A DNA stretch of 64,000 nucleotides, taken from Escherichia coli (GTDB taxonomy: Bacteria; Pseudomonadota; Gammaproteobacteria; Enterobacterales; Enterobacteriaceae). The stretch lies in assembly GCF_050320075.1 (NCBI RefSeq), contig NZ_CP190018.1; one strand, given 5' to 3'. Below the pieces are notes generated by a model. That model made no database searches. It was not told the origin of the DNA and worked only from the letters and a program-made list of their open reading frames with translations. Shown piece after piece: positions 1 to 46,299 of the stretch. Made by a program: the position numbers and the translations under genes. Positions within the stretch are counted from its first letter, which is position 1. The number at the start of each line of letters is the position of its first letter.

Positions 1-1
1 C

Positions 2-388
2 AAATATTACTGCGATCGCGCAATGGCTAAAAAGTTTGTGCTGAACTTCAGGCCCGGCTATGCCGCCAATATCAACGATTACCTCCCGGAAAAACTGTCG
101 ACACGTCTGGCTGAGGAGTCTGTTTCCCTGTGGCTGTCTACCTGTATTGCCGGTGTGGTGAAGCCTTATGCCAACGGTGCTCACGCATGGGAAATGAGCG
201 TTGTCAGAGTGCGTCGAAGCTGGTGGAAAAAACATCGGGATGAGTTTTCTTTACTGGAAGGGGATGCGTTCAGGCAGTGGTGCATTGAACAGCGGCAAGA
301 GCCGGAGATGGCAAACGTGATTTTAGTCACCGATGACGAAAGTTGCGGGTATTCGGCTATGGAAGGATTGACTGGCAAGGTTGGTTGA
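2..388 (+). CDS. cas3: Cas3 C-terminal region (partial, 5' end outside window)
   Basis: Open frame runs from position 2 with no upstream stop and ends at TGA 386-388, directly upstream of cse1; position matches cas3 in type I-E operons. No motif-level confirmation possible on this fragment. Confidence 0.55.
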   Translation, partial: KYYCDRAMAKKFVLNFRPGYAANINDYLPEKLSTRLAEESVSLWLSTCIAGVVKPYANGAHAWEMSVVRVRRSWWKKHRDEFSLLEGDAFRQWCIEQRQEPEMANVILVTDDESCGYSAMEGLTGKVG

Positions 389-485
389 GATGCCTGCGAC
401 AGGGCTCTCTGAATAGTTGATACACCGAAAAGGATGGAATGATGGACAACCGACCAGGGATGGTCTTTTTTACGAGAGGATGCGT

Positions 486-2048
486 ATGAACTCGTTTTCA
501 CTTCTGACAACCCCGTGGTTGCCCGTTCGTTATAAAGACGGAACGACAGGCAAACTGGCGCCAGTCGATCTGGCGGATGAAAATGTTGTCGATATCGCTG
601 CGCCGCGGGCAGATCTCCAGGGGGCGGCATGGCAGTTTTTGCTGGGACTATTACAAACCAGCTTCGCGCCAAAAGATCAACGTCGTTGGGATGATATCTG
701 GGAAGACGGACTGGAAGCTGAAAAGCTACGGGAAGCATTGCTGTCATTAGACCATGCTTTCCAGTTCGGGCCAGATTCACCTTCATTTATGCAGGATTTT
801 GAGGCGCTCACGGGAGATAAAGTTCCGGTCGCTTCGCTACTGCCTGAGATTCCCGGCGTTCAAACAACAAAGTTTAATAAAGACCACTTTATCAAGCGTG
901 GTGTAACGGAACACCTGTGCCCACAGTGTTCTGCACTAGCCTTGTTCTCTCTACAGTTAAATGCGCCGTCAGGTGGCAAAGGCTATCGCACCGGCTTACG
1001 CGGCGGTGGGCCGATGACCACGCTGATTGAATTACAGGAATATCAGGGCAATCAACAAACTCCCTTGTGGCGCAAACTATGGCTCAACGTGATGCCGCAG
1101 GATGAAGCCGACTTACCGCTACCCAAAAAATTTGACGATCTGATTTTCCCCTGGCTAGGCCCGACGCGTACCAGCGAACTGGCCGGTGCGGTGGTAACCC
1201 ATGATCAGGTCAATAAACTCCAGGCGTACTGGGGAATGCCGCGGCGTATACGTATTGATTTTAATACCACGACAGTCGGCAACTGCGATATTTGCGACGA
1301 GCAGAACGACGCGCTCCTGAGCCTGATGACGACCAAAAATTATGGTGCCAATTATGCCATGTGGCAGCATCCCTTAACGCCTTACCGTGTACCACTTAAA
1401 GAGGGGGGCGAGTTTTACTCCGTTAAACCACAACCGGGCGGTTTAATCTGGCGCGACTGGTTAGGCCTTATCGAAACGGGTAAATCAGAAAACAATACGG
1501 AACTTCCCGCGCTGGTGGTGAAACTCTTTAATGCCAGCAGTCTGAAACAGGCAAAAGTGGGCCTATGGGGATTTGGTTATGATTTTGACAACATGAAAGC
1601 GCGCTGTTGGTACGAACACCATTTCCCGCTACTGCTCAATAAAAAAGAAGGCCAGATACCGAAGCTGCGGCTGGCTGCGCAAACGGCTTCACGGATTCTG
1701 AGTCTGTTACGGAGTGCATTGAAAGAAGCATGGTTCTCCGATCCAAAAGGTGCAAGGGGTGATTTCAGTTTTGTGGATATCGACTTCTGGAACAAAACTC
1801 AGCATCGCTTCCTGAGGTTAGTGCGCCAAATTGAAGAAGGTCAGGATGCGGATGAATTACTCGGCAAATGGCAAAAGGAAATTTGGTTATTCGCGCGTCA
1901 GGATTTTGACGAGCGTGTATTCACTAATCCTTATGAGCCCGTTGATTTGAAACGCGTCATGACCGCGCGCAAGAAATATTTTACAACATCGGCGGAGAAG
2001 CAAAGTGCTAAAGCCGCCAGGGAGAAAAAGCAGGAGGCTGCTGAATGA
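486..2048 (+). CDS. cse1: Cse1/CasA, Cascade large subunit (type I-E)
   Basis: 520 aa from ATG 486, preceded by GAGAGGA RBS. N-terminus MNSFSLLTTPWLPVRY and GYRTGLRGGGPMTT segment resemble Cse1; first gene of the Cascade operon. ORF-track start at 417 is judged an upstream extension. Confidence 0.85.
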   Translation: MNSFSLLTTPWLPVRYKDGTTGKLAPVDLADENVVDIAAPRADLQGAAWQFLLGLLQTSFAPKDQRRWDDIWEDGLEAEKLREALLSLDHAFQFGPDSPSFMQDFEALTGDKVPVASLLPEIPGVQTTKFNKDHFIKRGVTEHLCPQCSALALFSLQLNAPSGGKGYRTGLRGGGPMTTLIELQEYQGNQQTPLWRKLWLNVMPQDEADLPLPKKFDDLIFPWLGPTRTSELAGAVVTHDQVNKLQAYWGMPRRIRIDFNTTTVGNCDICDEQNDALLSLMTTKNYGANYAMWQHPLTPYRVPLKEGGEFYSVKPQPGGLIWRDWLGLIETGKSENNTELPALVVKLFNASSLKQAKVGLWGFGYDFDNMKARCWYEHHFPLLLNKKEGQIPKLRLAAQTASRILSLLRSALKEAWFSDPKGARGDFSFVDIDFWNKTQHRFLRLVRQIEEGQDADELLGKWQKEIWLFARQDFDERVFTNPYEPVDLKRVMTARKKYFTTSAEKQSAKAAREKKQEAAE

Positions 2049-2581
2049 GTATTGTAAAAGAGGAGCACAAAGCCACGCTGCGTAAATGGCACGAAGAGTT
2101 GCAGGAAAAACGCGGCAATCGTGCCAGTCTGCGGCGTAGCACAACGGTTAATGATGTTTGTCTGTCAGAAGGGTTTCGTTCTCTGCTGATGCAGACCCAC
2201 ACTTTGTGGAAAATTGAAGCACAAGAGTGGCGTTTTACCGCACTGGCGCTGGTCGCCGCAGTTAGCGCCAATGTTAAAGCTATTGATGAACGGCAGCCTT
2301 TTGCCGCGCAGCTGGCGGCGGTAATGTCGGAGGGGCGTTTTACTCGCCTGTCGGCAGTAAAAACGCCTGATGATTTACTGCGTCAGTTACGTCGCGCGGT
2401 CAAATTATTAAATGGTTCCGTCAATCTTATCTCTTTGGCAGAAGATATTTTCCGCTGGTGCCAGGAGAGCGACGACCTGCTCAATCATCACCGCCGCCAG
2501 CAGCGGCCAACAGAATTTATCCGTATCCGCTGGGCGCTGGAATATTACCAGGCTGGCGACGCCGATAACGAACAAAATTAA
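2045..2581 (+). CDS. cse2: Cse2/CasB, Cascade small subunit
   Basis: 178 aa, ATGA overlap with cse1 stop; size and position as expected for cse2. Confidence 0.8.
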   Translation: MSIVKEEHKATLRKWHEELQEKRGNRASLRRSTTVNDVCLSEGFRSLLMQTHTLWKIEAQEWRFTALALVAAVSANVKAIDERQPFAAQLAAVMSEGRFTRLSAVKTPDDLLRQLRRAVKLLNGSVNLISLAEDIFRWCQESDDLLNHHRRQQRPTEFIRIRWALEYYQAGDADNEQN

Positions 2582-2595
2582 TAAAGGACTATCTC

Positions 2596-3651
2596 ATGAC
2601 GACATTTATTCAGCTTCATTTGTTAACCGCTTACCCTGCTGCCAACCTTAACCGTGATGACACCGGTGCGCCAAAAACTGTGGTACTGGGTGGAGCAACG
2701 CGTCTGCGCGTTTCCTCACAAAGTCTGAAACGTGCGTGGCGCACTTCTGCACTTTTTGAACAGGCACTGGCGGGCCATATTGGTATTCGCAGTGGGCGTA
2801 TTGCGCGTGAGGCGGCAACTATCCTGATTGAGAAAGGCATCGAAGAGAAAAAAGCCATCGAATGGGCGGCAAAAATTGCGGATTATCTTGGGAAAGCTAA
2901 AAACGACAAAAAACCAAAAGATCCGCTCACTAACGCCGAAACTGAACAGCTAGTCCATATCAGCCCGGCAGAATTTGACGCCGTAAAAGCGCTGGCCCAT
3001 CAACTGGCCGAAGAAAAGCGCGCGCCAAAAGAGGAAGATCTCGCTTTGTTACGTAAAGATCGCATGGCGGTAGATATCGCTATGTTTGGTCGTATGCTGG
3101 CGAATAAACCCGAATTTAATGTTGAAGCCGCCTGCCAGGTCGCGCATGCATTTGGTGTCAGTGAAACGATTGTCGAAGATGATTTTTTCACCGCCGTTGA
3201 TGATTTGCGCCAGGCTTCTGAAGATGCCGGTGCCGGGCATCTTGGTGAAACCGGATTCGGTTCTGCGCTGTTCTACACCTATATCTGCATCGATAAAGAT
3301 CTGCTGGTCGAAAACCTCGGCGGTGACGAAGCGTTAGCTAATCAGACCTTGCGCGCCTTTACGGAAGCCGCACTTAAAGTCTCCCCAACCGGCAAACAGA
3401 ACAGCTTTGCCAGCCGTGCCTACGCCTCCTGGGCGCTGGCAGAAAAAGGCACTGAACAACCACGCTCTCTGGCGGCGGCTTTCTATGAACCCATTAATGG
3501 CACCCGGCAGTTAGATGTGGCGGTGCAGCGTATTACAACGCTTCGCGAAAATATGAATACGGTCTATGAACAGAAGACCGAATGCGCAAGCTTTGACGTG
3601 ATGAACAAACAGGGAAGCATGAAGGACGTGCTGGACTTTATCTGCGCGTAA
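2596..3651 (+). CDS. cas7: Cas7/CasC, Cascade backbone subunit
   Basis: 351 aa, third Cascade gene, RBS AAGGA upstream. Confidence 0.85.
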   Translation: MTTFIQLHLLTAYPAANLNRDDTGAPKTVVLGGATRLRVSSQSLKRAWRTSALFEQALAGHIGIRSGRIAREAATILIEKGIEEKKAIEWAAKIADYLGKAKNDKKPKDPLTNAETEQLVHISPAEFDAVKALAHQLAEEKRAPKEEDLALLRKDRMAVDIAMFGRMLANKPEFNVEAACQVAHAFGVSETIVEDDFFTAVDDLRQASEDAGAGHLGETGFGSALFYTYICIDKDLLVENLGGDEALANQTLRAFTEAALKVSPTGKQNSFASRAYASWALAEKGTEQPRSLAAAFYEPINGTRQLDVAVQRITTLRENMNTVYEQKTECASFDVMNKQGSMKDVLDFICA

Positions 3652-3661
3652 GGGGCGGCTA

Positions 3662-4408
3662 ATGAGCCAATATTTGATTTTTCAGCTTCATGGGCCAATG
3701 GCATCCTGGGGCGTCGATGCCCCCGGCGAAGTGCGTCATACCCATGAACTGCCTTCGCGCTCAGCATTGCTGGGGCTGCTGGCTGCCGGGGTAGGGATTC
3801 GGCGTGATGATACCGAACGATTAAACGCGTTTAACAGCCACTATTCACTGGTGGTTTGCGCCAGCCGTAACCCGCGCTGGGCACGGGATTATCACACGGT
3901 CCAGATGCCAAAAGAGGTGCGTAAAGCGCGTTATTTCAGCCGTCGCGAAGAGTTGAGCGCCCCTGATCTTCTGAGCGCGATTATCTCCCGGCGCGACTAC
4001 TACACCGATGCCTGGTGGATGGTGGCGGTGGCAACAACCCCCGATGCGCCTTACAGGCTTGAACAGTTGCAGGACGGTTTACGTCATCCGGTTTTTCCGC
4101 TTTATCTGGGGCGAAAAAGTCATCCGCTGGCGTTACCACTTGCGCCGTTACTGCTCGAAGGCAACGCGTCTGATGTCTTACGTAACGCATACCAACAGTA
4201 TCAGGATAGTTTCCGCGAACTGAAAGTCTCACTCCCGAAACTTCAGGATGAATGCTGGTGGGAAGGGGAACACGACGGCCTGGTCGCGAGCAAAATATTA
4301 CGTCGCCGGGATGTTCCTTTAAATCGTCAGCAGTGGCTGTTTGGGGAACGCACCATCAATCAGGGGCCGTGGCTCAGCAAGGAGGAACCATGTACCTCTC
4401 AAGAATAA
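3662..4408 (+). CDS. cas5: Cas5/CasD
   Basis: 248 aa; N-terminus MSQYLIFQLHGPMASWG resembles the CasD N-terminus (MRSYLILRLAGPMQAWG in K-12 as I recall). Confidence 0.85.
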   Translation: MSQYLIFQLHGPMASWGVDAPGEVRHTHELPSRSALLGLLAAGVGIRRDDTERLNAFNSHYSLVVCASRNPRWARDYHTVQMPKEVRKARYFSRREELSAPDLLSAIISRRDYYTDAWWMVAVATTPDAPYRLEQLQDGLRHPVFPLYLGRKSHPLALPLAPLLLEGNASDVLRNAYQQYQDSFRELKVSLPKLQDECWWEGEHDGLVASKILRRRDVPLNRQQWLFGERTINQGPWLSKEEPCTSQE

Positions 4409-5036
4409 CCTTACATACCGGCCAGCTTTCGCCTGCGCAGTTGCTGCATCTGGTGGATCGCGGTGAATATGTAATGCATCAGTGGCTGTGGGATCTTTTT
4501 CCTGGCGGCAAAGAAAGGCAATTTCTTTATCGTCGGGAAGAACTCCAGGGGGCGTTTCGCTTTTTTGTCCTGTCGCAGGAACGCCCGGCGGAAAGTGATA
4601 TTTTCACCATCGAATGCCGACCATTTGCGCCAGAGTTGCGTACCGGACAATCCCTTTGTTTCAACCTGCGGGCGAATCCAACAATTTGTAAAGCGGGCAA
4701 ACGCCACGACTTGCTGATGGAGGCGAAACGGCAGGTGAGGGGGCAGGTGGAAGGAAGTGATGTCTGGTTGCATCAACAACAGGCGGCGCTGGACTGGCTG
4801 GCAGCGCAGGGGGAAAGAAGCGGTTTTACACTACTGGATACCTCGGTCGATGCCTACCGACAACAGCAACTGCGGCGGGAAAACTCCCGGCAACTGATCC
4901 AGTTCAGTAGCGTGGATTATACGGGGATGCTTACGGTCACCGATCCTGGGTTATTTCTGCAACGTCTGAGCCAGGGGTATGGCAAAAGCCGCGCGTTCGG
5001 CTGTGGTCTGATGCTGATCAAACCCGGAGCAGAGGC

Positions 5037-5040
<4 letters not shown>
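4390..5040 (+). CDS. cas6e: Cas6e/CasE, crRNA endoribonuclease
   Basis: 216 aa from ATG 4390 (MYLSRITL..., cf. K-12 CasE MYLSKV...); GGAGGAACC RBS; overlaps cas5 3' end by 19 nt. ORF-track start 4252 rejected as extension. Confidence 0.85.
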
Positions 5041-6250
<1,210 letters not shown>

Positions 6251-6346
6251 GTTATCTGTTCTTTAAAAATAAGGAAATGTTTTAATTTAGTTGGTAGATT
6301 GTTGATGCGGAATAAATTTGTTTAAAAACAGTTATGTATGCTTAGT
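6251..6346 (+). promoter_or_regulatory. CRISPR leader (AT-rich, between cas2 stop and first repeat)
   Basis: 96-bp AT-rich segment immediately upstream of repeat 1 on the sense side; leader position next to cas2 as in E. coli CRISPR-I. Confidence 0.7.
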
Positions 6347-6985
6347 GTGTTCCCCGCGTCAGCGGGGATAAACCGACAATCAGATCACGATCGATGCCTC
6401 GCGTGAGGTGTTCCCCGCGTCAGCGGGGATAAACCGATTTTCGCAGCGGGTAACCGCGCCCGGCGATCGTGTTCCCCGCGTCAGCGGGGATAAACCGTTT
6501 ATGTGGAGTATCAGTGCCTGGGTGGAAAGGTGTTCCCCGCGTCAGCGGGGATAAACCGTGGGGCTGAGCATGGCTAAACAACCGAGGCGCGTGTTCCCCG
6601 CGTCAGCGGGGATAAACCGGTCAACTGGCACCACAGGATGATGGCGGCGAAGTGTTCCCCGCGCCAGCGGGGATAAACCGCAGGTCGACCGACTGGAGGC
6701 GGAGATTGTCGGGTGTTCCCCGCGCCAGCGGGGATAAACCGTGTTGTTTTTCTGCCGGATTAACGCGGTGCGAGTGTTCCCCGCGCCAGCGGGGATAAAC
6801 CGTTGTCGGGCTTGTTCGGCGCGGGTTGTTAACTGTGTTCCCCGCGCCAGCGGGGATAAACCGCCAGCGAAGGACTTGCTCGTGTGGTTAAAGCCGTGTT
6901 CCCCGCGTCAGCGGGGATAAACCGGACGCACTGGATGCGATGATGGACATCACTTGGAGTTCCCCGCCCCTGCGGTAGAACTCCC
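6347..6985 (+). CRISPR. Type I-E CRISPR array: 10 full 29-bp repeats, 10 spacers of 32 bp, plus a degenerate terminal repeat
   Basis: Repeat GTGTTCCCCGCG(T/C)CAGCGGGGATAAACCG at 6347, 6408, 6469, 6530, 6591, 6652, 6713, 6774, 6835, 6896 (period 61 bp); terminal degenerate repeat GAGTTCCCCGCCCCTGCGGTAGAACTCCC at 6957-6985. Sense strand is + (hairpin then AUAAACCG 5' handle). Confidence 0.97.
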
Positions 6986-18185: not shown

Positions 18186-18593
18186 CTATGTGTTCATCAT
18201 CTTGCGCACCAACTGCATAAACAGCTCCTGCTCTTCTGCACTCAAACGCCCCAAAAATTCCTCATCCACGCTGTCACCAATGGGGATCGCCGCAGCAAGT
18301 ACCTTTTCTCCTTCGGCAGTCAGCCAGACAAAGCGTCGCCGCTTGTCAGCGGCGTCATGTTCACGTCTGACTAAGCCACGATTTTCCATTCTTGCCAACA
18401 TTTCTGCCAGCGTTGCTTTGGTGCTGACTGCTGCTTCTATCAGTGCCACCTGTTCGATACCAGGCTTATCAGCAATGGCGCGCATCACCGCGTACTGTGG
18501 TTTGGTGAGGTCAGGTAACTCGTGCTGCCAGCGAGCCGTGTGCTGCTGAAAAAGCTGTCGTAACTGATGGAACGCTTTATTTCGTAACGCCAT
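18186..18593 (-). CDS. hosA: MarR/SlyA-family transcriptional regulator (HosA-like)
   Basis: 135 aa from ATG 18593 (GGAG RBS 5 nt upstream); winged-helix MarR pattern; divergent from the decarboxylase genes. Symbol from recollection of the rpoS-mutS islet in pathogenic E. coli. Confidence 0.75.
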   Translation of the reverse strand: MALRNKAFHQLRQLFQQHTARWQHELPDLTKPQYAVMRAIADKPGIEQVALIEAAVSTKATLAEMLARMENRGLVRREHDAADKRRRFVWLTAEGEKVLAAAIPIGDSVDEEFLGRLSAEEQELFMQLVRKMMNT

Positions 18594-18739
18594 GTAAACT
18601 CCGGGCAAACTATCTGCCGCTATCATAGCGGTTTTTCAGTGACGAAGAAGATGTTGTTACTTTTCAGTGCTTGCCGCGATGAAAACAGAGGCGTATTTTA
18701 ATAATAACGTTCGTATACGAACAATTAAGAGAATAAACA

Positions 18740-19333
18740 ATGAGACTGATCGTCGGGATGACAGGGGCCACCGGAGCGCCTCTTGGTGTGGCATTACTGC
18801 AAGCGCTGCGGGAGATGCCGAATGTCGAGACTCATCTGGTGATGTCGAAGTGGGCGAAAACCACCATTGAACTGGAAACGCCTTACAACGCCCGCGATGT
18901 TGCTGCCCTCGCAGACTTCTGCCATAACCCGGCGGATCAGGCCGCAACCATCTCCTCAGGTTCCTTTCGTACCGACGGCATGATCGTTATTCCGTGCAGT
19001 ATGAAAACGCTCGCCGGTATCCGTGCCGGTTACGCCGATGGCCTGGTAGGGCGCGCGGCGGACGTCGTGCTCAAAGAAGGCCGCAAACTAGTGCTGGTGC
19101 CGCGTGAAATGCCGCTTAGCACCATCCATCTCGAAAATATGCTCGCACTTTCACGCATGGGCGTGGCGATGGTGCCGCCGATGCCTGCCTTTTATAACCA
19201 TCCCGAAACGGTAGATGACATTGTCCACCACGTGGTAGCCCGCGTGCTGGATCAATTTGGCCTCGAACATCCTCACGCCAGGCGCTGGCAAGGATTGCCG
19301 CAGGCCCGGAATTTTTCTCAGGAGAATGAATAA
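18740..19333 (+). CDS. ecdB: UbiX-like flavin prenyltransferase (decarboxylase subunit B, Pad1-like)
   Basis: 197 aa, MRLIVGMTGATGAPLG flavoprotein N-terminus typical of UbiX/Pad1. Confidence 0.9.
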   Translation: MRLIVGMTGATGAPLGVALLQALREMPNVETHLVMSKWAKTTIELETPYNARDVAALADFCHNPADQAATISSGSFRTDGMIVIPCSMKTLAGIRAGYADGLVGRAADVVLKEGRKLVLVPREMPLSTIHLENMLALSRMGVAMVPPMPAFYNHPETVDDIVHHVVARVLDQFGLEHPHARRWQGLPQARNFSQENE

Positions 19334-20760
19334 TGGCATTTGATGATTTACGCAGCTTTTTACAGGCGCTTGATGACCACGGCCAGTTACTGAAAATCAG
19401 CGAAGAGGTGAACGCGGAACCGGATCTGGCAGCCGCTGCCAACGCCACCGGACGTATCGGCGATGTTGCACCGGCGCTGTGGTTTGACAATATTCGCGGC
19501 TTTATCGATGCCCGCGTGGCAATGAACACCATCGGTTCCTGGCAGAACCACGCGATTTCCCTCGGCCTGCCGCCAAACACCCCGGTTAAAAAACAGATTG
19601 ATGAGTTTATCCGCCGCTGGGATAACTTCCCCATTGCCCCGGAGCGCCGCGCCAATCCAGCCTGGGCGCAGAACACCGTCGATGGCGACGAGATCAACCT
19701 GTTCGATATTCTGCCTCTGTTTCGTTTAAACGACGGTGATGGCGGTTTCTATCTCGACAAAGCGTGCGTGGTTTCCCGCGATCCGCTTGATCCGGATAAC
19801 TTCGGCAAGCAGAACGTCGGCATCTACCGTATGGAAGTGAAGGGTAAGCGTAAGCTCGGTCTGCAACCGGTGCCGATGCACGATATCGCCCTGCATCTGC
19901 ATAAAGCGGAAGAACGCGGTGAAGATCTGCCGATTGCCATCACACTCGGTAACGATCCGATCATCACCCTGATGGGGGCCACGCCGCTGAAATATGATCA
20001 GTCCGAGTACGAAATGGCAGGCGCGCTGCGTGAAAGCCCGTACCCGATCGCCACCGCCCCGCTGACTGGTTTTGATGTGCCGTGGGGTTCAGAAGTGATC
20101 CTCGAAGGGGTCATCGAAAGCCGTAAACGCGAAATCGAAGGGCCGTTTGGTGAGTTTACCGGGCACTACTCCGGCGGGCGTAACATGACCGTGGTGCGTA
20201 TCGATAAAGTCTCTTATCGCAGCAAACCCATTTTTGAATCGCTCTATCTCGGGATGCCGTGGACGGAAATCGACTACCTGATGGGGCCAGCCACCTGCGT
20301 GCCGCTGTATCAGCAACTGAAAGCCGAGTTCCCGGAAGTGCAGGCGGTAAATGCCATGTACACCCACGGCCTGCTGGCGATTATCTCCACCAAAAAACGC
20401 TACGGTGGCTTTGCCCGCGCGGTGGGCCTGCGTGCGATGACCACGCCACACGGTCTGGGCTACGTGAAGATGGTGATTATGGTCGATGAAGACGTTGATC
20501 CGTTCAACCTGCCGCAGGTGATGTGGGCGCTCTCTTCGAAAGTGAACCCGGCAGGGGATTTGGTGCAGTTGCCGAATATGTCCGTGCTGGAACTCGACCC
20601 CGGCTCAAGCCCGGCCGGTATCACCGACAAGCTGATTATCGACGCCACCACGCCTGTCGCCCCGGACAACCGTGGTCACTACAGCCAGCCGGTGGTGGAT
20701 TTACCGGAAACCAAAGCCTGGGCTGAAAAACTGACCGCTATGCTGGCCGCACGTAAATAA
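19333..20760 (+). CDS. ecdC: UbiD-family (prFMN-dependent) aromatic acid decarboxylase subunit C
   Basis: 475 aa, UbiD-family length and motifs; start overlaps ecdB stop. Confidence 0.9.
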   Translation: MAFDDLRSFLQALDDHGQLLKISEEVNAEPDLAAAANATGRIGDVAPALWFDNIRGFIDARVAMNTIGSWQNHAISLGLPPNTPVKKQIDEFIRRWDNFPIAPERRANPAWAQNTVDGDEINLFDILPLFRLNDGDGGFYLDKACVVSRDPLDPDNFGKQNVGIYRMEVKGKRKLGLQPVPMHDIALHLHKAEERGEDLPIAITLGNDPIITLMGATPLKYDQSEYEMAGALRESPYPIATAPLTGFDVPWGSEVILEGVIESRKREIEGPFGEFTGHYSGGRNMTVVRIDKVSYRSKPIFESLYLGMPWTEIDYLMGPATCVPLYQQLKAEFPEVQAVNAMYTHGLLAIISTKKRYGGFARAVGLRAMTTPHGLGYVKMVIMVDEDVDPFNLPQVMWALSSKVNPAGDLVQLPNMSVLELDPGSSPAGITDKLIIDATTPVAPDNRGHYSQPVVDLPETKAWAEKLTAMLAARK

Positions 20761-20770
20761 GGAGAACAAG

Positions 20771-21007
20771 ATGATTTGTCCACGTTGTGCTGATGAACAG
20801 ATTGAAGTGATGGCGAAATCGCCGGTAAAAGATGTCTGGACGGTCTACCAGTGCCAGCATTGCCTCTATACCTGGCGCGATACCGAACCGCTACGCCGCA
20901 CCAGCCGCGAACATTATCCCGAAGCGTTCCGCATGACACAGAAAGATATTGATGACGCGCCGATGGTGCCGAGCATCCCGCCGCTGCTGGCGGAAGGTAA
21001 GCGCTAA
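20771..21007 (+). CDS. ecdD: Decarboxylase small subunit D (zinc-ribbon, CxxC...CxxC)
   Basis: 78 aa, MICPRCADEQ...YQCQHCLYTW, typical small subunit of BsdBCD/EcdBCD-type decarboxylases. Confidence 0.85.
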   Translation: MICPRCADEQIEVMAKSPVKDVWTVYQCQHCLYTWRDTEPLRRTSREHYPEAFRMTQKDIDDAPMVPSIPPLLAEGKR

Positions 21008-21010
21008 ATA

Positions 21011-21041
21011 AAAGGTCCGATGCCCATCGGACCTTTTTATT
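21011..21041. terminator. Bidirectional terminator between convergent ecdD and ygbN
   Basis: Stem GGTCCGATG/CATCGGACC flanked by an A-run and TTTTT. Confidence 0.7.
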
Positions 21042-21045
21042 AAGG

Positions 21046-22410
21046 TCAAATTACCGCCCATACGCACCAGGTAATTAAGAATCCGGTAAAACCGAGAATG
21101 GTCGTTAACACTGTCCAGGTTTTCAGACCGTCTGCTACCGATAACCCCAGATATTTGGTCACAATCCAGAACCCTGAGTCATTAATATGTGACGCGCCAA
21201 GCCCACCAAAGCAGGCTGCCAGCGTCACCAATACGCACTGAATCGGATTCAATCCCATCACCGCTTCTGAGAGTAACCCGCCGGTTGTCAGGATTGCTAC
21301 GGTTGCTGACCCCTGCGATGCACGCAGCGCCAGTGAAATAATAAATGCGGCTGGTAACAGAGGCAGGTCAATCATTTGTAGCATGTTGGCAAGGGCTTTG
21401 CCGACGCCCGATTCCACCAGCACTTTGCCAAATACCCCTCCAGCACCAGTAACCAAAATCACTACCGCCGCGGTGGGAAGGGCTGAGCCCATAATGTCGC
21501 TGGTGTGTTGTAAGCTCCAGCCGCGACGTAAAGCCAATAACCAGAATGCCAGCACCAGCGCAATCATTAGAGCTACCATTGGTGAGCCGATCAGCTGTAG
21601 CGTACCAAGCAGGGGATGCGAAGGCGGCATCAGTGTTGCGGAAACCGTACCCGCCATGATAATCGCGATAGGAATAACAATTAGCGAGGTGACCAGCGCG
21701 ACGCCCGGTGGATTTATTTTATCGCTTAATTTTGTCGCGCCTTCCTCACTGGCCGGAGCCAGTTGCATCTGTTCCAGTACTTCCACCGACATCGCATATT
21801 GGCGCTTATTGATTATTTTCGCTGCAAAGTAGCCAACAATCCCTACGGGAATAGAAATCGCAATACCGATGATGGTTAGCCAGCCGATGTCTGCGTGGAG
21901 TAACCCCGCTGCGGCGACAGGGCCTGGATGCGGCGGTACCGCCACATGAACAGTTAGCATGATTCCAGCGACAGGCAGGCCAAATTTGAGTGGCGATATT
22001 TTGGCAACCTTGGCAAAACCGTAAATGATTGGCGCAAGAATAATAAAGCCGACATCAAAGAAGACGGGAATACCGAGGAAGAACGCTGCCAGAGTCAGCG
22101 CAGCGATAGTTCGTTTGTCACCTAACTTGCGACTGAAATAATTAGCCAGTGACTCTGCACCACCAGAGTGTTCGATCATACGCCCCAGCATAGCGCCCAG
22201 ACCAATAATAATAGTGACGGAACCAAGCACACCGCCCATCCCGGCGATCATCACTTTACCCACTTCGCCCGCCGGTATACCCGCCGCAAGTGCGACTAAC
22301 AGGCTGACGAGGAGCAGAGCAACGAATGGTTGTACCTTTGCCTTGATGACCAGCAGCAACAGCATGATTACGCCAGTTAACGCAATGCATAACAATGTAA
22401 TTGTGGACAT
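21046..22410 (-). CDS. ygbN: GntP-family permease YgbN
   Basis: 454 aa polytopic membrane protein; E. coli YgbN. Confidence 0.93.
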   Translation of the reverse strand: MSTITLLCIALTGVIMLLLLVIKAKVQPFVALLLVSLLVALAAGIPAGEVGKVMIAGMGGVLGSVTIIIGLGAMLGRMIEHSGGAESLANYFSRKLGDKRTIAALTLAAFFLGIPVFFDVGFIILAPIIYGFAKVAKISPLKFGLPVAGIMLTVHVAVPPHPGPVAAAGLLHADIGWLTIIGIAISIPVGIVGYFAAKIINKRQYAMSVEVLEQMQLAPASEEGATKLSDKINPPGVALVTSLIVIPIAIIMAGTVSATLMPPSHPLLGTLQLIGSPMVALMIALVLAFWLLALRRGWSLQHTSDIMGSALPTAAVVILVTGAGGVFGKVLVESGVGKALANMLQMIDLPLLPAAFIISLALRASQGSATVAILTTGGLLSEAVMGLNPIQCVLVTLAACFGGLGASHINDSGFWIVTKYLGLSVADGLKTWTVLTTILGFTGFLITWCVWAVI

Positions 22411-22498
22411 GGGAAACCCTGTCTGAAAGTTATAGTTAACCTACCCCATCCGTAGATGGGGGGATGTATGGGTACTTTGTAATTAGGGATTTAACGAA

Positions 22499-27857: not shown

Positions 27858-30419
27858 TTACACCAGACTCTTCAAGCGATAAATCCACTCCAGCGCCTGA
27901 CGCGGAGTCAGTGAATCCGGGTCGAGATTTTCCAGTGCTTCGACCGCAGGCGACGTTTCTTCTGGCACTGACAGCAAAGACATTTGCGTACCATCCACTT
28001 GCGTAGCGGCGGCGTTCGGCGAAATGCTTTCCAACTCACGCAGTTTTTGCCGTGCGCGCTTAATAACCTCTTTTGGCACGCCGGCCAGAGCTGCAACCGC
28101 CAGGCCGTAGCTTTTGCTCGCCGCGCCATCCTGCACGCTGTGCATAAAGGCAATGGTGTCGCCGTGCTCCAGCGCATCGAGATGCACGTTGGCGACGCCT
28201 TCCATTTTCTCCGGTAACTGGGTCAGCTCGAAATAGTGGGTGGCAAACAGTGTCAACGCTTTAATCTTATTCGCCAGATTTTCCGCGCACGCCCACGCCA
28301 GCGACAGACCATCGTAAGTGGACGTCCCGCGCCCAATCTCATCCATCAGCACCAGACTGTACTCGGTGGCGTTATGTAAAATATTGGCGGTTTCGGTCAT
28401 TTCCACCATAAAGGTTGAACGCCCGGATGCCAGATCATCCGCTGCCCCTACGCGGGTAAAGATGCGATCGATAGGTCCAATCTCGACTTTTTGTGCCGGT
28501 ACATAGCTGCCGATGTAGGCCATCAGCGCAATCAGTGCGGTCTGGCGCATATAGGTACTTTTACCGCCCATATTCGGACCGGTAATGATCAACATGCGAC
28601 GCTGCGGCGACAGGTTCAGCGGGTTGGCGATAAACGGCTCATTCAGCACCTGTTCAACCACCGGATGGCGGCCTTCGGTGATGCGAATACCCGGTTTATC
28701 AATAAAGGTCGGGCAGGTGTAGTTCAGCGTATAGGCCCGTTCTGCCAGGTTCACCAGCACGTCGAGTTCCGCCAGCGCGCTCGCGCTCTGTTGCAACGCT
28801 TCCAGATGCGGCAACAGCAGGTCGAACAACTCTTCATAAAGCTGTTTTTCCAGTGCCAGTGCTTTGCCTTTTGAAGTGAGAACTTTGTCTTCGTACTCTT
28901 TTAGCTCTGGAATAATGTAGCGTTCGGCGTTTTTCAGCGTCTGGCGGCGCATGTAGTTAATCGGTGCCAGATGGCTTTGTCCACGGCTGATCTGAATGTA
29001 ATAACCATGCACCGCGTTAAATCCGACTTTCAGCGTGTCCAGGCCGGTACGTTCACGCTCGCGGACTTCCAGACGCTCCAGATAATCGGTCGCGCCGTCA
29101 GCCAGCGCGCGCCACTCATCCAGCTCTTCGTTATAGCCCGATGCGATAACACCACCGTCGCGCACCAGTACCGGCGGTGTGTCGATAATGGCCCGCTCCA
29201 GCAGATCGCGCAGTTCGGCAAACTCACCCATCTTCTCACGCAGCGCCTGTACCGGAGCGCTATCGACATTTTCTAACTGCGCACGCAGCTCCGGCAGTTG
29301 CTGGAAAGCGTGACGCATACGGGCCAGATCGCGTGGGCGAGCAGTTCGTAAAGCCAGACGTGCCAGAATACGTTCCAGGTCGCCGACCTGACGCAGCACC
29401 GGCTGTAGCTCGGCGGTGAAATCCTGCAATGCGCCAATAGTTTGCTGGCGCTCAAGCAACACGCGGGTATCGCGCACTGGCATATGCAGCCAGCGTTTCA
29501 GCATACGACTACCCATTGGCGTTACAGTGCAGTCGAGCACTGAAGCCAGCGTGTTTTCCGCACCGCCCGCCAGGTTCTGAGTAATTTCCAGGTTACGACG
29601 TGTCGCGGCATCCATAATGATGCTGTCCTGCTCACGTTCCATGGTGATAGAACGAATATGCGGCAGGGTCGTACGTTGGGTATCTTTCGCATACTGCAAC
29701 AGACAACCGGCAGCACAAAGTCCGCGCGGCGCGTTCTCGACGCCAAAACCGACCAGATCGCGGGTGCCAAATTGCAGATTCAACTGCTGGCGCGCGGTGT
29801 CGATTTCAAACTCCCACAGCGGGCGACGGCGCAGGCCGCGACGGCCTTCAATTAACGACATTTCAGCAAAATCTTCTGCATACAGCAGTTCCGCCGGATT
29901 AGTGCGTTGCAGTTCTGCCGCCATCGTTTCGCGGTCAGCCGGTTCGCTCAGGCGAAAACGACCGGAACTGATATCCAGCGTCGCGTAGCCGAAACCTTTG
30001 CTGTCCTGCCAGATAGCCGCCAGCAGGTTGTCCTGACGCTCCTGCAACAGGGCTTCATCGCTGATGGTGCCTGGCGTAACGATACGCACAACTTTGCGCT
30101 CAACCGGACCTTTGCTGGTCGCCGGATCGCCAATTTGTTCGCAGATGGCAACGGACTCGCCCTGATTCACCAGTTTGGCGAGGTAGTTTTCCACCGCATG
30201 GTAGGGGATCCCCGCCATCGGGATCGGCTCTCCCGCGGAAGCACCGCGTTTGGTCAGTGAAATATCCAGCAGCTGCGAGGCGCGTTTCGCGTCGTCATAA
30301 AACAGTTCGTAAAAGTCACCCATCCGATAGAACAGCAGGATCTCGGGATGCTGGGCTTTCAGCTTGAGATACTGCTGCATCATGGGCGTATGGGCATCGA
30401 AATTTTCTATTGCACTCAT
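27858..30419 (-). CDS. mutS: DNA mismatch repair protein MutS
   Basis: 853 aa, Walker [10 protein letters not shown]; E. coli MutS. Confidence 0.98.
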
Positions 30420-30665
30420 GGGGTTATGTCCGGTTCCCTGATATTAAATGGGGTGTGATGGTTTTTATTTTCGTTGTAATCACATAAGGCGCACATGATA
30501 CCGGAGTTAATCATTTCAGGGGAAGAAGCGAACGGCGAGTTCTTGATGCTGGTTCCGGGAAAGATGCTGTTTTGCAGCTTTTGCGTGATGCTTATGAAGC
30601 AAGTACGCAAAATTGTATCGGTTGGCTAACCCTTCTTCTTTAGAGTCATAGTGCCCTTTAAGATT

Positions 30666-30688
30666 AAGTTGTAATATAAATGCATCTT
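30666..30688 (+). promoter_or_regulatory. Candidate NsrR operator upstream of ygbA
   Basis: AAGTTGTAATA-T-AAATGCATCTT: right half matches the NsrR half-site AAATGCATCTT as I recall it, left half 7/11; ygbA is a known NsrR target. Confidence 0.4.
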
Positions 30689-30705
30689 AATGAGATGGAG
30701 GCAGC

Positions 30706-31050
30706 ATGTCCGGCAAGCGTATCTCTCGTGAAAAACTGACGATTAAAAAAATGATCGATCTTTATCAAGCGAAATGCCCGCAGGCGTCAGCGGAGCCGGA
30801 GCATTATGAGACGTTGTTTACTTACGCGCAAAAGCGGCTGGATAAATGTGTGTTCGGCGAAGAGAAACCAGCCTGTAAGCAGTGTCCGGTGCACTGTTAC
30901 CAGCCTGCAAAGCGTGAAGAGATGAAACAGATTATGCGTTGGGCTGGGCCGCGAATGCTGTGGCGTCATCCGATCTTAACCGTGCGTCATCTCATCGATG
31001 ACAAGCGTCCGGTGCCGGAGTTGCCAGAAAAATATCGTCCAAAGAAATAA
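30706..31050 (+). CDS. ygbA: NsrR-regulated protein YgbA
   Basis: 114 aa, MSGKRISREKLTIKKMIDLYQAKCP...; E. coli YgbA. Confidence 0.9.
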   Translation: MSGKRISREKLTIKKMIDLYQAKCPQASAEPEHYETLFTYAQKRLDKCVFGEEKPACKQCPVHCYQPAKREEMKQIMRWAGPRMLWRHPILTVRHLIDDKRPVPELPEKYRPKK

Positions 31051-31088
31051 ATCTGCCGGAGAGCCATACTCTCCGGCAAATAAGGCGC

Positions 31089-31517
31089 TTACGCTTTGGT
31101 GGCAATCAGGATGGCTGATGCTTTGATCAATGCAATAACGCGCGAGCCAGTGGTGAGTTTCATTTCATCCTGACTTTCATTTGTTACCACTGCCACAATT
31201 TCAAAACCCGCATCCGTTTTGATATGGACAGTGGCGTTCACTGCGCCTTCGGTGATTGTCGACACGCTGCCAGCAAACTGGTTGCGAGCAGAGAATTTCA
31301 GTCCACAGTCTTCCGTTGCCAGCGTTACCCACGGGGCTTTAATCAGGGCAATCGCTTCTTTCCCTTTCGCCAGACCCAGCGCTTGCTGGCTGCTGTGAGT
31401 CACAATTGCCACCAGCTTTGCACCACCTGCCAGCGTCAGTTCTACTTCATCATTCACAGCGCCCATTGCTACTGCGCTAACTGTTCCGGTTAATTGATTT
31501 CTTGCTGAAACTGCCAT
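31089..31517 (-). CDS. Tandem Mop/TOBE-domain molybdate-binding protein
   Basis: 142 aa from ATG 31517 (AGGAGG RBS 4 nt upstream). Two internal repeats of about 70 aa (SARNQLTGTVS...AIALIKAPWVTLA and SARNQFAGSVS...VIALIKASAILIA) typical of Mop/TOBE domains. Confidence 0.8.
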   Translation of the reverse strand: MAVSARNQLTGTVSAVAMGAVNDEVELTLAGGAKLVAIVTHSSQQALGLAKGKEAIALIKAPWVTLATEDCGLKFSARNQFAGSVSTITEGAVNATVHIKTDAGFEIVAVVTNESQDEMKLTTGSRVIALIKASAILIATKA

Positions 31518-31561
31518 ACTGCCTCCTTTCATTGAACGTTGATCGAGTATAACCACATCTG

Positions 31562-33640
31562 TTAAATCAATGCCGATTTATCAATTCCCAGTCGCTTCAT
31601 CCGTGACAGCAGGGTCGTGCGTTTCAGCCCCAGACGTTGCGCAGCGCCTTTAGGCCCGGCAACCACGCCGTTGGTTTCTTTCAGCACGCGAACAATCAAC
31701 TGATATTCATCTTCGCCCTCCTGGGCGACAACCGTTGCGGCAGGCGGCGTTTCAGGCTCCGGTAAAGCAATATCTGGCAGTGACAGCTGCAGCACGTTGC
31801 CGCGTGTTAGCAATACCGCGCGCTCAATGACGTTTTCCAGTTCGCGTACGTTACCCGGCCACTCCATGTTGCTCAAGGTGCGCAGCGTCTCGGCAGGAAT
31901 GCTGTCGATATTGCGCCCGAGACGACGGGCAATTTTGAAGGTAAAGGCTTTCGCCAGCAGCGGAATATCTTCCGGACGCTCGCGTAGTGGCGGCAGGTGG
32001 ATCGGGAATACATTCAGGCGGTAATAGAGATCGCTACGGAACTCACGGTCGGCGACCATTTTTTTCAGATCGCGGTTAGTCGCGGCAATTAAACGTACGT
32101 CCGTCTGAATGATTTTGTTGCTGCCGAGGCGTTCAAACTCCTGTTCCTGTAATACACGCAGCAACTTCGGCTGTAACTCCAGTGGCATATCGCCCACTTC
32201 GTCGAGGAACAGGGAGCTTTTATCCGCCAGTTCAAAACGACCAATGCGCTGGGCGCTGGCACCGGTAAAAGCCCCACGCTCATGACCAAACAGATCGCTC
32301 TCCAGCAATCCGGCAGGCATTGCCGCGCAGTTCATTTTTACCATGCGGCGATTATTACGCCCACTGAGATTATGGATCGCGCGGGCAATCAGCTCTTTAC
32401 CTGTACCAGTTTCACCGAGAATCAGCACGGTACTGTCGCTTTGCGCCACCATTTCAACTTGTTTAAGTACGCTGTACATGGCTTCGCTGCGGCCAATAAT
32501 CTCGCCAAATTCACTATCAACATTGTTGAGCTGCTCGGTCAGGGCGAGGTTTTCATCAACCAGCCGTTCTTTCAGACGATGGATTTCCTGATAGGCGAGG
32601 GCGTTATCGACAGCGATTGCCACACGTTCGGTAATCTGGCGCAGTAAATTCAGATTGGTAGTGGTAAACACTTTCTCTTCGCATTGCGCCAGTTTCAGCA
32701 CGCCCAGCATGGTGTCGCCAGACATCAGCGGTAACAGGCACAAGGTTTGAATCTGGTTGCCCCAGGTGTCGAACAACATGCGTTCATAGGGGGCTAAATC
32801 GTCCCGCTCGTGGAGATTAATCAGCAGCATCTCTTTGCTTTTGAACACGCGTTCGGTGAGGGTTCCGGCTTCATCGACTTCGCTCTGTTCGTGGGCGGGA
32901 TGCTGTTTATCAAGATAGTGAGTGGAGTAGATGTTGAGTTTGTTTTTACGGTGGCTGCGTAAGACGATGCTGATATCGTCAATGTCGAAGTAGTAATGGA
33001 TTTCTTTGGCGACTTCGCTGACCAGTTCGTCCATATCCAGGCGGGAAAGCACCGCGTTGGTAATGGCAACCAGGATGCGGAAGTTATCGCGCTCCCGGCA
33101 TAACAACTCATAGTCGACATTATTGACGACGCGGCTCTGGATTTGTTCGGTGACGACAGAAACGATCTGCGTAAATGTTTGCAGACGATTGAACTCTTTT
33201 TCGCTCCAGGGGCGATCGTCATAACGAATAAATTCACAGCCACCAAAAATATGCCCTTCCGCCGCCAGTGGCATCAGGCAATAGTGACCAAATTTGGGGT
33301 ATAGCCCACCTGCGGCCAGCTGCGGCCAGGTTTCACAAAATTCTTCGTAACTGCAATGCAGCGTATCAGGGCGCGACAAAATGCTGCGTACCGGACCGTG
33401 TGCCAGAACAGTTTCGTCTTCATATTTAATGGGGGTGTCTTTTTCACGCGATGCGTAATAAGACGCACGTTGAGTCTGCGCTTGCCACAACACAATAGCC
33501 GCGTTGTCGGCGAGCGCAGAACGCTTTACCAGTTGCGAAAGAGCCTCACACAGCGAGGCCAGATCGGGCTGCTGCAATAGTGTCCGAGTGATGTCGAACA
33601 ACCCTTGTTGTCCGAGATCACTCATCGGTGTATATGACAT
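31562..33640 (-). CDS. fhlA: Formate hydrogenlyase transcriptional activator FhlA (sigma54-dependent)
   Basis: 692 aa from MSYTPMSDLGQQ; GAF domains, AAA+ sigma54-interaction motif GETGTGKE and GAFTGA. Confidence 0.96.
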   Translation of the reverse strand: MSYTPMSDLGQQGLFDITRTLLQQPDLASLCEALSQLVKRSALADNAAIVLWQAQTQRASYYASREKDTPIKYEDETVLAHGPVRSILSRPDTLHCSYEEFCETWPQLAAGGLYPKFGHYCLMPLAAEGHIFGGCEFIRYDDRPWSEKEFNRLQTFTQIVSVVTEQIQSRVVNNVDYELLCRERDNFRILVAITNAVLSRLDMDELVSEVAKEIHYYFDIDDISIVLRSHRKNKLNIYSTHYLDKQHPAHEQSEVDEAGTLTERVFKSKEMLLINLHERDDLAPYERMLFDTWGNQIQTLCLLPLMSGDTMLGVLKLAQCEEKVFTTTNLNLLRQITERVAIAVDNALAYQEIHRLKERLVDENLALTEQLNNVDSEFGEIIGRSEAMYSVLKQVEMVAQSDSTVLILGETGTGKELIARAIHNLSGRNNRRMVKMNCAAMPAGLLESDLFGHERGAFTGASAQRIGRFELADKSSLFLDEVGDMPLELQPKLLRVLQEQEFERLGSNKIIQTDVRLIAATNRDLKKMVADREFRSDLYYRLNVFPIHLPPLRERPEDIPLLAKAFTFKIARRLGRNIDSIPAETLRTLSNMEWPGNVRELENVIERAVLLTRGNVLQLSLPDIALPEPETPPAATVVAQEGEDEYQLIVRVLKETNGVVAGPKGAAQRLGLKRTTLLSRMKRLGIDKSALI

Positions 33641-45571: not shown

Positions 45572-45883
45572 ATGCACATCATTTCGAAAGCGCCATTTGA
45601 AGAGTGTGCGCGCAAATATCCTAACGACGCTCTGGCTCTACACTCATTGTATCGGGTTATTAAGGAAACGGATTTTTCTACACCAGAAGAAATGCGAACG
45701 GCGTTTCCTAACCTCGACAATTTTAAATATCGCAACAAATGGTACGTTCTGGATGTCGGCGGGAACAATCTTAGGGTTATTGCCTACATAAACTTTGTTA
45801 ATAAGCGGTTCTTTGTGAAGCACATAACGAATCACGCAGAGTATGACAAACTGACACGTTACTACAGAGAGAACAAAGAATGA
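45572..45883 (+). CDS. HigB-like (RelE/ParE superfamily) toxin
   Basis: 103 aa basic protein with NLDNFKYRNKWYVLDVGGNNLRVIAY segment resembling HigB-family toxins; toxin gene precedes antitoxin as in higBA. Confidence 0.8.
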   Translation: MHIISKAPFEECARKYPNDALALHSLYRVIKETDFSTPEEMRTAFPNLDNFKYRNKWYVLDVGGNNLRVIAYINFVNKRFFVKHITNHAEYDKLTRYYRENKE

Positions 45884-46299
45884 CTGCTAATGCTGCACGC
45901 GCTGTTAAAGCAACAAGAGAACTGGTCAATGCAGTCCCCTTTCTGGGAGGCAGTGACTCAGAAGATGATTATCGTGAAGCACTGGAACTGGTCGAATATT
46001 TGATTGAAGAAGATGACACCAATCCACTTATCGACTTTCTGGCGAGCCGCATTGCAGAATATGAAAACAACAACGAAAAGTTTGCAGAGTTCGACAAAGC
46101 CGTTGCAGCAATGCCGGTTGGCGTGGCCTTACTTCGTACGCTGATTGATCAACATAATTTGACCTATGCGGATTTGAAGAACGAAATCGGCTCTAAATCT
46201 CTGGTCAGTCAGATTTTGTCTGGGCAACGATCCCTGACGATATCCCATATTAAGGCACTTTCAGCCCGATTTGGCGTTAAGCCGGAATGGTTTCTTTGA
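45880..46299 (+). CDS. HigA-like HTH (XRE-family) antitoxin
   Basis: 139 aa, ATGA overlap with toxin stop; C-terminal HTH ...IGSKSLVSQILSGQRSLTISHIKALSARFGVKPEWF typical of HigA. Confidence 0.8.
   Translation: MTANAARAVKATRELVNAVPFLGGSDSEDDYREALELVEYLIEEDDTNPLIDFLASRIAEYENNNEKFAEFDKAVAAMPVGVALLRTLIDQHNLTYADLKNEIGSKSLVSQILSGQRSLTISHIKALSARFGVKPEWFL

Follow-up and report, generated by a model that had tools for sequence, protein, structure and literature searches.

The closest described counterpart of the protein considered here is ModG of Azotobacter vinelandii, which measures about 140–145 aa in its solved chains (1H9J, 1H9K and 1H9M) and consists of two tandem Mop domains with no other domain. 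The structures of ModG are reportedly the work of Delarbre et al. in 2001, and an assembly of the ModG type is a trimer binding eight molybdates. The same two-Mop fold is found at the C-terminus of the Escherichia coli regulator ModE (1H9R/1H9S, 1O7L and 1B9M), which additionally carries an N-terminal winged-helix DNA-binding domain. Single-domain proteins of this kind, such as MopII of C. pasteurianum (1GUG) and Tub of E. limosum (9BEB), are about 70 aa long and form hexamers. In Tub, the type-1 oxyanion site is built from the backbone of A20-V21-N22, while the type-2 site comprises S4, R6, K60 and A61 together with S40 from the neighbouring subunit; these sites resemble those observed in ModG, Mop and ModE (PMC11980592). 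As far as can be told from the titles cited in that paper, the modG gene of A. vinelandii is located within the mod locus and is regulated by ModE (PMC11980592).

Molybdate is also linked to the formate hydrogenlyase (FHL) system of E. coli. FHL expression depends on molybdate and ModE, the latter being needed for maximal expression of hyc and fdhF (PMC3149613), and maximal FHL expression requires all four of FhlA, formate, molybdate and ModE (PMC3149613; PMC11841067).

In the present work, a gene for a ModG-like protein, here called mop, was studied in a 64,000-nucleotide stretch of the E. coli chromosome (hereafter the window), which extends from cas3 to mltB and is reverse-complemented relative to the K-12 map. 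The 901 bp of the window that were tested are 100% identical to strain CFSAN061763. Like ModG, the product of mop has two tandem Mop domains and no other domain, and its 142 residues match the length of the ModG chains. Unlike A. vinelandii modG, mop is found 3' of hyp-fhlA and far from the mod genes, none of which was found in the 64-kb window. The host also differs from A. vinelandii in not being a nitrogen fixer, and the clients of the protein would be the formate dehydrogenase FDH-H and other Moco enzymes instead of nitrogenase.

The gene is already annotated in RefSeq, and its presence/absence polymorphism has already been published. Ewers and others used fhlA-mutS and c3292-mutS amplicons, with products of 1,673 bp in CFT073 versus 1,208 bp in MG1655/EDL933 (PMC4209514), and Lerminiaux and others described in 2020 the fhlA-mutS interval as a hotspot of gene gain and loss, in which mop appears as "modE" (PMC7232297). 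The present analysis adds that the protein belongs with ModG, that its ligand sets are intact in either domain, that the gene is under strong purifying selection, that hyp-fhlA-mop synteny spans the family and that the polymorphism arose by deletion.

The mop gene and its product

The coordinates of the locus are collected in Table 1. The open reading frame runs on the same strand as fhlA, from an ATG at 31517-31515 to a TAA at 31091-31089, and its start codon is located 44 nt past the fhlA stop codon. An earlier note on this DNA had described a 142-aa frame with an AGGAGG ribosome-binding site after fhlA, composed of two Mop halves of about 70 aa each, and all of this was borne out by the analysis. 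The same note had assigned the gene to 31051-31561; a gene is indeed present there, but these limits delineate the whole fhlA-ygbA interval, of which mop occupies 31089-31517.

Table 1. Features of the fhlA-mop-ygbA region, in window coordinates.
Feature	Position	Strand	Details
mop CDS (142-aa di-Mop, ModG-like molbindin)	31089..31517	minus	14.5 kDa, pI 6.7
Shine-Dalgarno AGGAGG	31522..31527	minus	4 nt 5' of mop ATG
fhlA, formate hydrogenlyase transcriptional activator (692 aa)	31562..33640	minus	directly upstream of mop
ygbA (114-aa allele)	30706..31050	plus	convergent with mop
Mop/TOBE domain 1, residues 4-66	31320..31508	minus	Pfam TOBE PF03459, E 1.6e-17
Mop/TOBE domain 2, residues 76-137	31107..31292	minus	Pfam TOBE PF03459, E 6.2e-16
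fhlA-mop spacer, 44 nt, no terminator	31518..31561	minus	fold z 0.18
Conserved spacer motif GGTTATACT	31546-31554	minus	within fhlA-mop spacer
GC-rich hairpin between convergent mop and ygbA	31051..31081		14-bp stem, 7 GC pairs
Segment missing from K-12/O157-type E. coli (~474 bp)	~31085..31558		alignment vs EDL933

The TOBE/Mop search with PF03459 returned two domains, and the NCBIfam model TIGR00638 "Mop" matched the product with 142 bits (cut-off 55), likewise over two stretches. The two halves share 30 identical residues out of 70. In RefSeq the protein is WP_000301062.1, a "TOBE domain-containing protein" which is the same as c3292 of CFT073. This record is found on at least 1,000 contigs and has carried the legacy names "transporter", "molybdopterin-binding protein" and "molybdate transport system regulatory protein".

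Some database records give a 155-aa form of the protein, starting from an upstream in-frame GTG (window 31518-31556). The comparison supports the shorter 142-aa form, since its ATG is preceded by a Shine-Dalgarno sequence and gives a constant length in 35 other genomes: counted from the equivalent ATG, none of the 35 syntenic orthologs departs from 142 aa, and a GGAG(G) core is placed equivalently in 35 of 35.

A further observation concerns Cys71 (codon 31305-31307), which is located in the linker EDCGLKF between the domains. Of the Enterobacteriaceae orthologs compared, at least 90% keep this residue, and A. vinelandii ModG has a serine at the same position.

Homology, fold and predicted ligand sites

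The product of mop is a ModG-type di-Mop molbindin and neither a ModE nor a transporter, because it has two Mop domains without a DNA-binding or ATPase domain. By phmmer, ModG (1H9J) was matched over residues 1-140 with an E-value of 5e-33, in an ungapped alignment with 68 of 140 positions identical (49%). An AlphaFold (AF2) model, which was built on 27 homologues, reached a pLDDT of 96.4 and a pTM of 0.88. When this model was searched with Foldseek, the top three structures were those of ModG (1H9K/J/M), with TM scores of 0.94–0.95 and rmsd values of 1.3–1.4 Å, followed by the di-Mop domain of E. coli ModE in its molybdate- and tungstate-bound forms (TM 0.88–0.90).

The single-domain proteins align residue for residue with each half of the mop product (E about 1e-9), with 40% identity to Tub and identical ligand positions; residues 2-67 of Tub (9BEB) align with residues 74-139, an offset of +72. 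Given that the single domains form hexamers while the mop chain fuses two of them, a trimer would be the equivalent assembly. The ligand contacts were mapped by alignment to Tub, and not from a structure with bound ligand. The predicted oxyanion contacts are S4, R6, A20-V21-N22, T40, K60 and A61 in domain 1, and S76, R78, A92-V93-N94, T112, K132 and A133 in domain 2. All 16 predicted positions are either invariant or conserved in 35 of the 36 orthologs, and they are shared with ModG, which has the same residues at the type-1 (GAVN) and type-2 (S-x-R, T/S40, K-A) sites in both halves. The ModE di-Mop region is about 34–36% identical to the mop product, and its first Mop domain shares the ligand motifs SARN, T..S and KAPW; according to the alignment, however, ModE no longer has the ligand motifs in its second Mop domain, whereas the mop product keeps both sets.

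Two other assignments were considered and rejected. The ModE equivalog model NF007957 gave 88 bits against a cut-off of 369 and matched at profile positions 124-261 only. The ModC/WtpC models of ABC ATPases matched at their C-terminal 65 or so profile positions only, far under their cut-offs, and no ATPase domain was detected in the product by Pfam.

The label "modE" (PMC7232297) and the name "molybdate transport system regulatory protein" are misnomers, since the product has no DNA-binding domain and both of its ligand sets are intact. The names "modE", "transporter" and "molybdopterin-binding" can thus be replaced by that of a ModG-type oxyanion binder, with neither a DNA-binding nor an ATPase domain.

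Distribution and synteny

A near-full-length mop was found in 1,889 of 5,426 complete E. coli genomes (about 35%), always as a single chromosomal copy and never on a plasmid, and an identical contiguous deletion junction was found in 3,506 (about 65%). Among the 1,892 genomes with any match, 1,889 have a near-full-length copy and in 1,891 the identity is at least 95%. Strains 536, E2348/69 and 042 were identified as carriers by the genome scan, while IAI39 (PMC7232297) and CFT073 (PMC4209514) are known as such from published work. The non-carriers include K-12, BW25113, EDL933 (O157:H7), UMNK88 and one O111:H8 strain. In K-12 MG1655, fhlA ends at 2856416 and ygbA starts at 2856453, so that 36 bp and no mop separate the two genes; the few tens of base pairs given for K-12 in the earlier note were therefore accurate, as was its size of roughly 470 bp for the difference, which amounts to about 474 bp against EDL933. 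The breakpoints are located within a few nucleotides of the fhlA and mop TAA stop codons, and the junction has diverged since the event.

Beyond E. coli, a scan of one genome per species revealed mop in 49 loci. In 35 of these the gene directly follows fhlA; hypE precedes fhlA wherever the locus reaches that far, and ygbA often comes after mop. These 35 loci belong to E. albertii, another Escherichia sp., Citrobacter, Pseudocitrobacter, Klebsiella, Raoultella, Kluyvera, Enterobacter, Pluralibacter, Yokenella, Lelliottia and Kosakonia, and outside Escherichia at least 12 genera of Enterobacteriaceae show the order hypE-fhlA-mop(-ygbA). Solitary orthologs, whose neighbours are unrelated (an aldehyde dehydrogenase, a peroxidase, and transporters for efflux and amino acids), occur in Serratia, Cedecea and Edwardsiella, and in Phytobacter mop follows hypE without fhlA. 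The scan, which relies on peptide patterns and is no proof of absence, gave no match in Salmonella. By the same peptide-pattern scan no match was obtained in E. fergusonii, a species reported to carry the gene (PMC7232297).

The Phytobacter type of arrangement was also noted in Kosakonia sp. S29. In the loci of Phytobacter spp. and of this strain (positions ~5866-6000), hypE is directly followed by mop, and no fhlA occurs within 6 kb upstream. The hypE-mop spacer of about 135 nt contains a conserved 10-bp palindrome, CTATACCCAT-N9-ATGGGTATAG, which is perfect in one locus (L047).

Expression signals

Co-transcription of mop with fhlA, as the last cistron, is plausible because no terminator is predicted between the two genes and a strong one is predicted after mop. 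Folding of the 96 nt surrounding the fhlA-mop junction is no more stable than that of shuffled sequence (z 0.18), and among the syntenic orthologs the spacer after the fhlA stop codon is mostly 36–56 nt long. The hairpin between mop and ygbA has a folding energy of −25.4 kcal/mol (z −4.53, a value reached in 0 of 200 shuffles) and is followed on the minus strand by a U-rich tail. Comparable GC-rich hairpins follow mop in other genera, and the deletion allele keeps the hairpin, there directly 3' of fhlA. It is likely, judging by these features, that this hairpin terminates a hyp-fhlA-mop transcript.

The hairpin region varies between alleles. At its 3' end (window 31040-31085, compared with 1640-1700 of locus L002), ygbA encodes 114 aa ending in KYRPKK in the window and 117 aa ending in KKPRE in K-12/EDL933. 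The stem of the shared hairpin differs between the allele classes by a compensatory G:C to C:G change, and the K-12-type hairpin resembles the one found after mop in Citrobacter amalonaticus.

No sigma-70 promoter was detected by a scan of 30400-32000 (0 sites), and inspection by hand found no usable -35 element upstream of the conserved TATACT. ModE operators (TATAT-N7-TAYAT or TATATA-N6-TATATA, mismatches allowed) were not found upstream of 13 of the orthologs outside the standard fhlA-mop arrangement, namely solitary, Phytobacter-type hypE-mop and distant homologues; the fhlA-linked spacers were inspected by eye only. A search of the whole window with Rfam gave no family at the gathering score.

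Within the spacer, a motif of the form GG(C/T)TATAC(T)/TATAA is kept in Escherichia, Citrobacter, Kluyvera and Pluralibacter, whereas the rest of the spacer diverges. A single-sequence fold allows base pairing between this motif and AGTATGGC, which covers the mop start codon. RNAalifold gave no consensus structure for this pairing, which by counting is 86% paired, with one compensatory change only. The TATAC-containing motif might mark an independent internal promoter or a translational control element. The motif matches neither the sigma-70 promoter consensus nor a ModE box.

Further observations on the window

Several features of the window were recorded independently of mop. A complete type I-E CRISPR-Cas locus (cas3 to cas2e) occupies positions 1-6925, with the CRISPR array at 6165-6925. 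In the mutS-rpoS interval, positions 18187-22411 comprise a MarR-family gene and the hydroxyarylic acid decarboxylase BCD genes adjoining ygbN; this is a known polymorphic segment which looks like "pattern IV" of Ewers and others (PMC4209514). In that study the long fhlA-mutS amplicon is stated to be exclusive to pattern III, and Table 1 of the paper is internally inconsistent for E2348/69 (PMC4209514). The gene c3292 is present in both E2348/69 and the window.

Between mutS and ygbA, a 44-aa "hypothetical protein" (WP_000611932.1) is annotated by PGAP at 30495-30629 on the plus strand, in gene-bearing as well as gene-less genomes. At about 45572-46299, between hycI and ascB, there are genes for a HigB-family toxin and a helix-turn-helix antitoxin, according to the annotation of CFSAN061763. 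In every PGAP record examined, fhlA (31562-33640) bears the symbol "flhA" and a product name ending in "activator FlhA"; this is the symbol of a flagellar export gene and a systematic naming slip for fhlA.

Proposed function

The explanation proposed here, in which a ModG-type buffer is encoded by an ancestral last cistron of hyp-fhlA that was lost once in the K-12/O157 line, appears probable when taken as a whole. The mop product is a cytoplasmic ModG-type molbindin made of two fused Mop/TOBE domains only. By analogy with ModG and the single-domain proteins, we infer that it would assemble as a trimer equivalent to a Mop hexamer, that this trimer would have two kinds of inter-subunit site for molybdate and probably for tungstate, and that it may supply or buffer molybdenum for FDH-H, acting as an intracellular buffer or store of oxyanions. 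The gene itself is an old resident of the Enterobacteriaceae at the 3' end of the hyp-fhlA string, probably transcribed as the last cistron of the hyp-fhlA unit up to the hairpin shared with ygbA. Its product would then be made upon induction of the formate hydrogenlyase system, which includes the molybdoenzyme FDH-H. Finally, an ancestor of K-12/O157-type E. coli lost mop through one deletion of about 474 bp that spared the terminator.

The earlier note had proposed a link between mop and the molybdate response of FHL; its premise agrees with the literature, which describes the FHL regulon as dependent on both molybdate and ModE (PMC3149613). For mop itself, the conserved place after hyp-fhlA suggests that the protein is produced together with the formate hydrogenlyase system. 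However, gene order alone could reflect vertical inheritance and not a functional link, and the solitary orthologs of Serratia, Cedecea and Edwardsiella, like the hypE-mop arrangement without fhlA in Phytobacter, speak against a strict tie to FHL. Any contribution of mop to FHL is moreover dispensable, at least with ModE and ModABC present, because about 65% of E. coli manage without the gene. In the article texts searched, no functional, expression, fitness or binding study of the mop product was found for any enterobacterium, and the gene was mentioned there only in the two papers on the structure of the locus (PMC4209514; PMC7232297).

Two other roles can be weighed against buffering. A regulatory role, in which the free di-Mop protein would sense molybdate through protein contacts (for example in mixed oligomers with the ModE di-Mop or the ModC TOBE domain, or by touching FhlA) and thereby tune the repression of mod or the molybdenum dependence of hyc/fdhF, seems quite improbable. 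Its attraction lies in the sequence identity of about 34–36% and the TM scores of 0.88–0.90 to the ModE di-Mop, in the requirement of ModE for maximal hyc/fdhF expression (PMC3149613), in the long-standing linkage of mop to the regulator gene fhlA and in the designation of ModG as a "molybdate homeostasis regulator" (PMC11980592). Yet the mop product lacks a DNA-binding domain, as reflected in its partial match, far under the cut-off, to the ModE equivalog; the full ligand sets in both of its domains are those of the storage proteins ModG and Tub, while the second domain of ModE is without one; and the orthologs of Serratia, Edwardsiella and Phytobacter are unlinked from fhlA.

Very improbable, in our assessment, is a tungstate-directed protein similar to TudG, which would sequester tungstate and so either shield Moco enzymes such as FDH-H from mis-metallation or store tungsten. 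The TudG/ModG architecture occurs in more gut species predicted to use tungsten than molybdenum (PMC11980592). Sites of the Mop type accept either oxyanion: the binding of tungstate and molybdate by Tub is comparable, and structures of the ModE di-Mop and of MopII with bound tungstate exist. On the other hand, the closest characterised relative of the mop product is the molybdate-binding ModG, and no tungsten-specific transporter or enzyme is encoded nearby. Tungstoenzymes are not known to be used by E. coli and its relatives.

Origin of the polymorphism

Judging from the comparison of genomes, mop is ancestral at the fhlA-ygbA site and was removed by one deletion on the branch towards K-12/O157-type E. 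coli, since its synteny extends across genera, its dS resembles that of the flanking genes, its GC content is native and the gene-less genomes share one junction. In the comparison with E. albertii the dS of mop is 0.36, versus 0.31–0.61 for fhlA, hypE, ygbA and mutS; with Escherichia sp. it is 0.23, versus 0.17–0.39 for the same genes; and with Citrobacter it is about 0.95–1.3, versus 0.94–1.75 for the flanking genes once the saturated estimates for ygbA are excluded. The GC content of mop is 50.6%, compared with 53.2% for the window, and no repeats, integrase or IS/mobility genes were found at the boundaries of the segment. The gene is under strong purifying selection, with dN/dS values of 0.03–0.09, close to those of fhlA and hypE, in comparisons with species ranging from E. 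albertii to Kosakonia.

The earlier note had interpreted the gene as a strain-specific insertion, that is, a foreign cassette of about 470 bp recently placed between fhlA and ygbA. This reading, which is extremely improbable, accommodates the fact that K-12, O157:H7 and some 65% of complete E. coli genomes are without mop, as well as the position of the gene within a known hotspot of gene gain and loss (PMC7232297). It is contradicted by the occurrence of mop at the same site in 35 other species-level genomes, with its position and orientation kept in E. albertii, Citrobacter, Klebsiella, Raoultella, Kluyvera, Enterobacter, Kosakonia and others, by dS values that match those of the flanking core genes species by species, and by a GC content near that of the window without flanking repeats, integrase or IS; in addition, the gene is single-copy and chromosomal, never carried on a plasmid, and the genomes without it share one junction. 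Next to no credence can be given to mop being a decaying or non-functional remnant frame that survives in some lineages, for although most E. coli show no obvious harm from having lost the gene and the peptide-pattern scan gave no match in Salmonella (not conclusive), the low dN/dS across genera, the invariant length of 142 aa, the kept Shine-Dalgarno sequence and ligand residues, and the near-full-length and at least 95% identical state of nearly all E. coli copies speak against decay.

Significance for E. coli and the Enterobacteriaceae

The polarity of the polymorphism is hereby corrected: the comparison points to an ancestral gene deleted in K-12-type E. coli, and not to an insertion. The standard laboratory strain is without a strongly conserved component that adjoins the FHL regulator gene in its relatives. 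If the mop product buffers molybdate or tungstate, it could affect the maturation of FDH-H under metal limitation, and it could likewise affect the response to tungstate of Klebsiella, Citrobacter and gene-bearing E. coli.

A stronger proposal would be that hyp-fhlA-mop constitutes, in most Enterobacteriaceae, a dedicated step of molybdate/tungstate buffering or sensing which couples oxyanion supply to the biogenesis of FHL/FDH-H; this we regard as rather unlikely. Should it be true, the homeostasis of molybdenum and tungsten would differ between K-12/O157-type strains and gene-bearing strains such as 536, E2348/69, 042 and CFT073, with a possible difference in sensitivity to tungstate or to molybdenum limitation in the gut or the urinary tract, one that studies of K-12 could never reveal.
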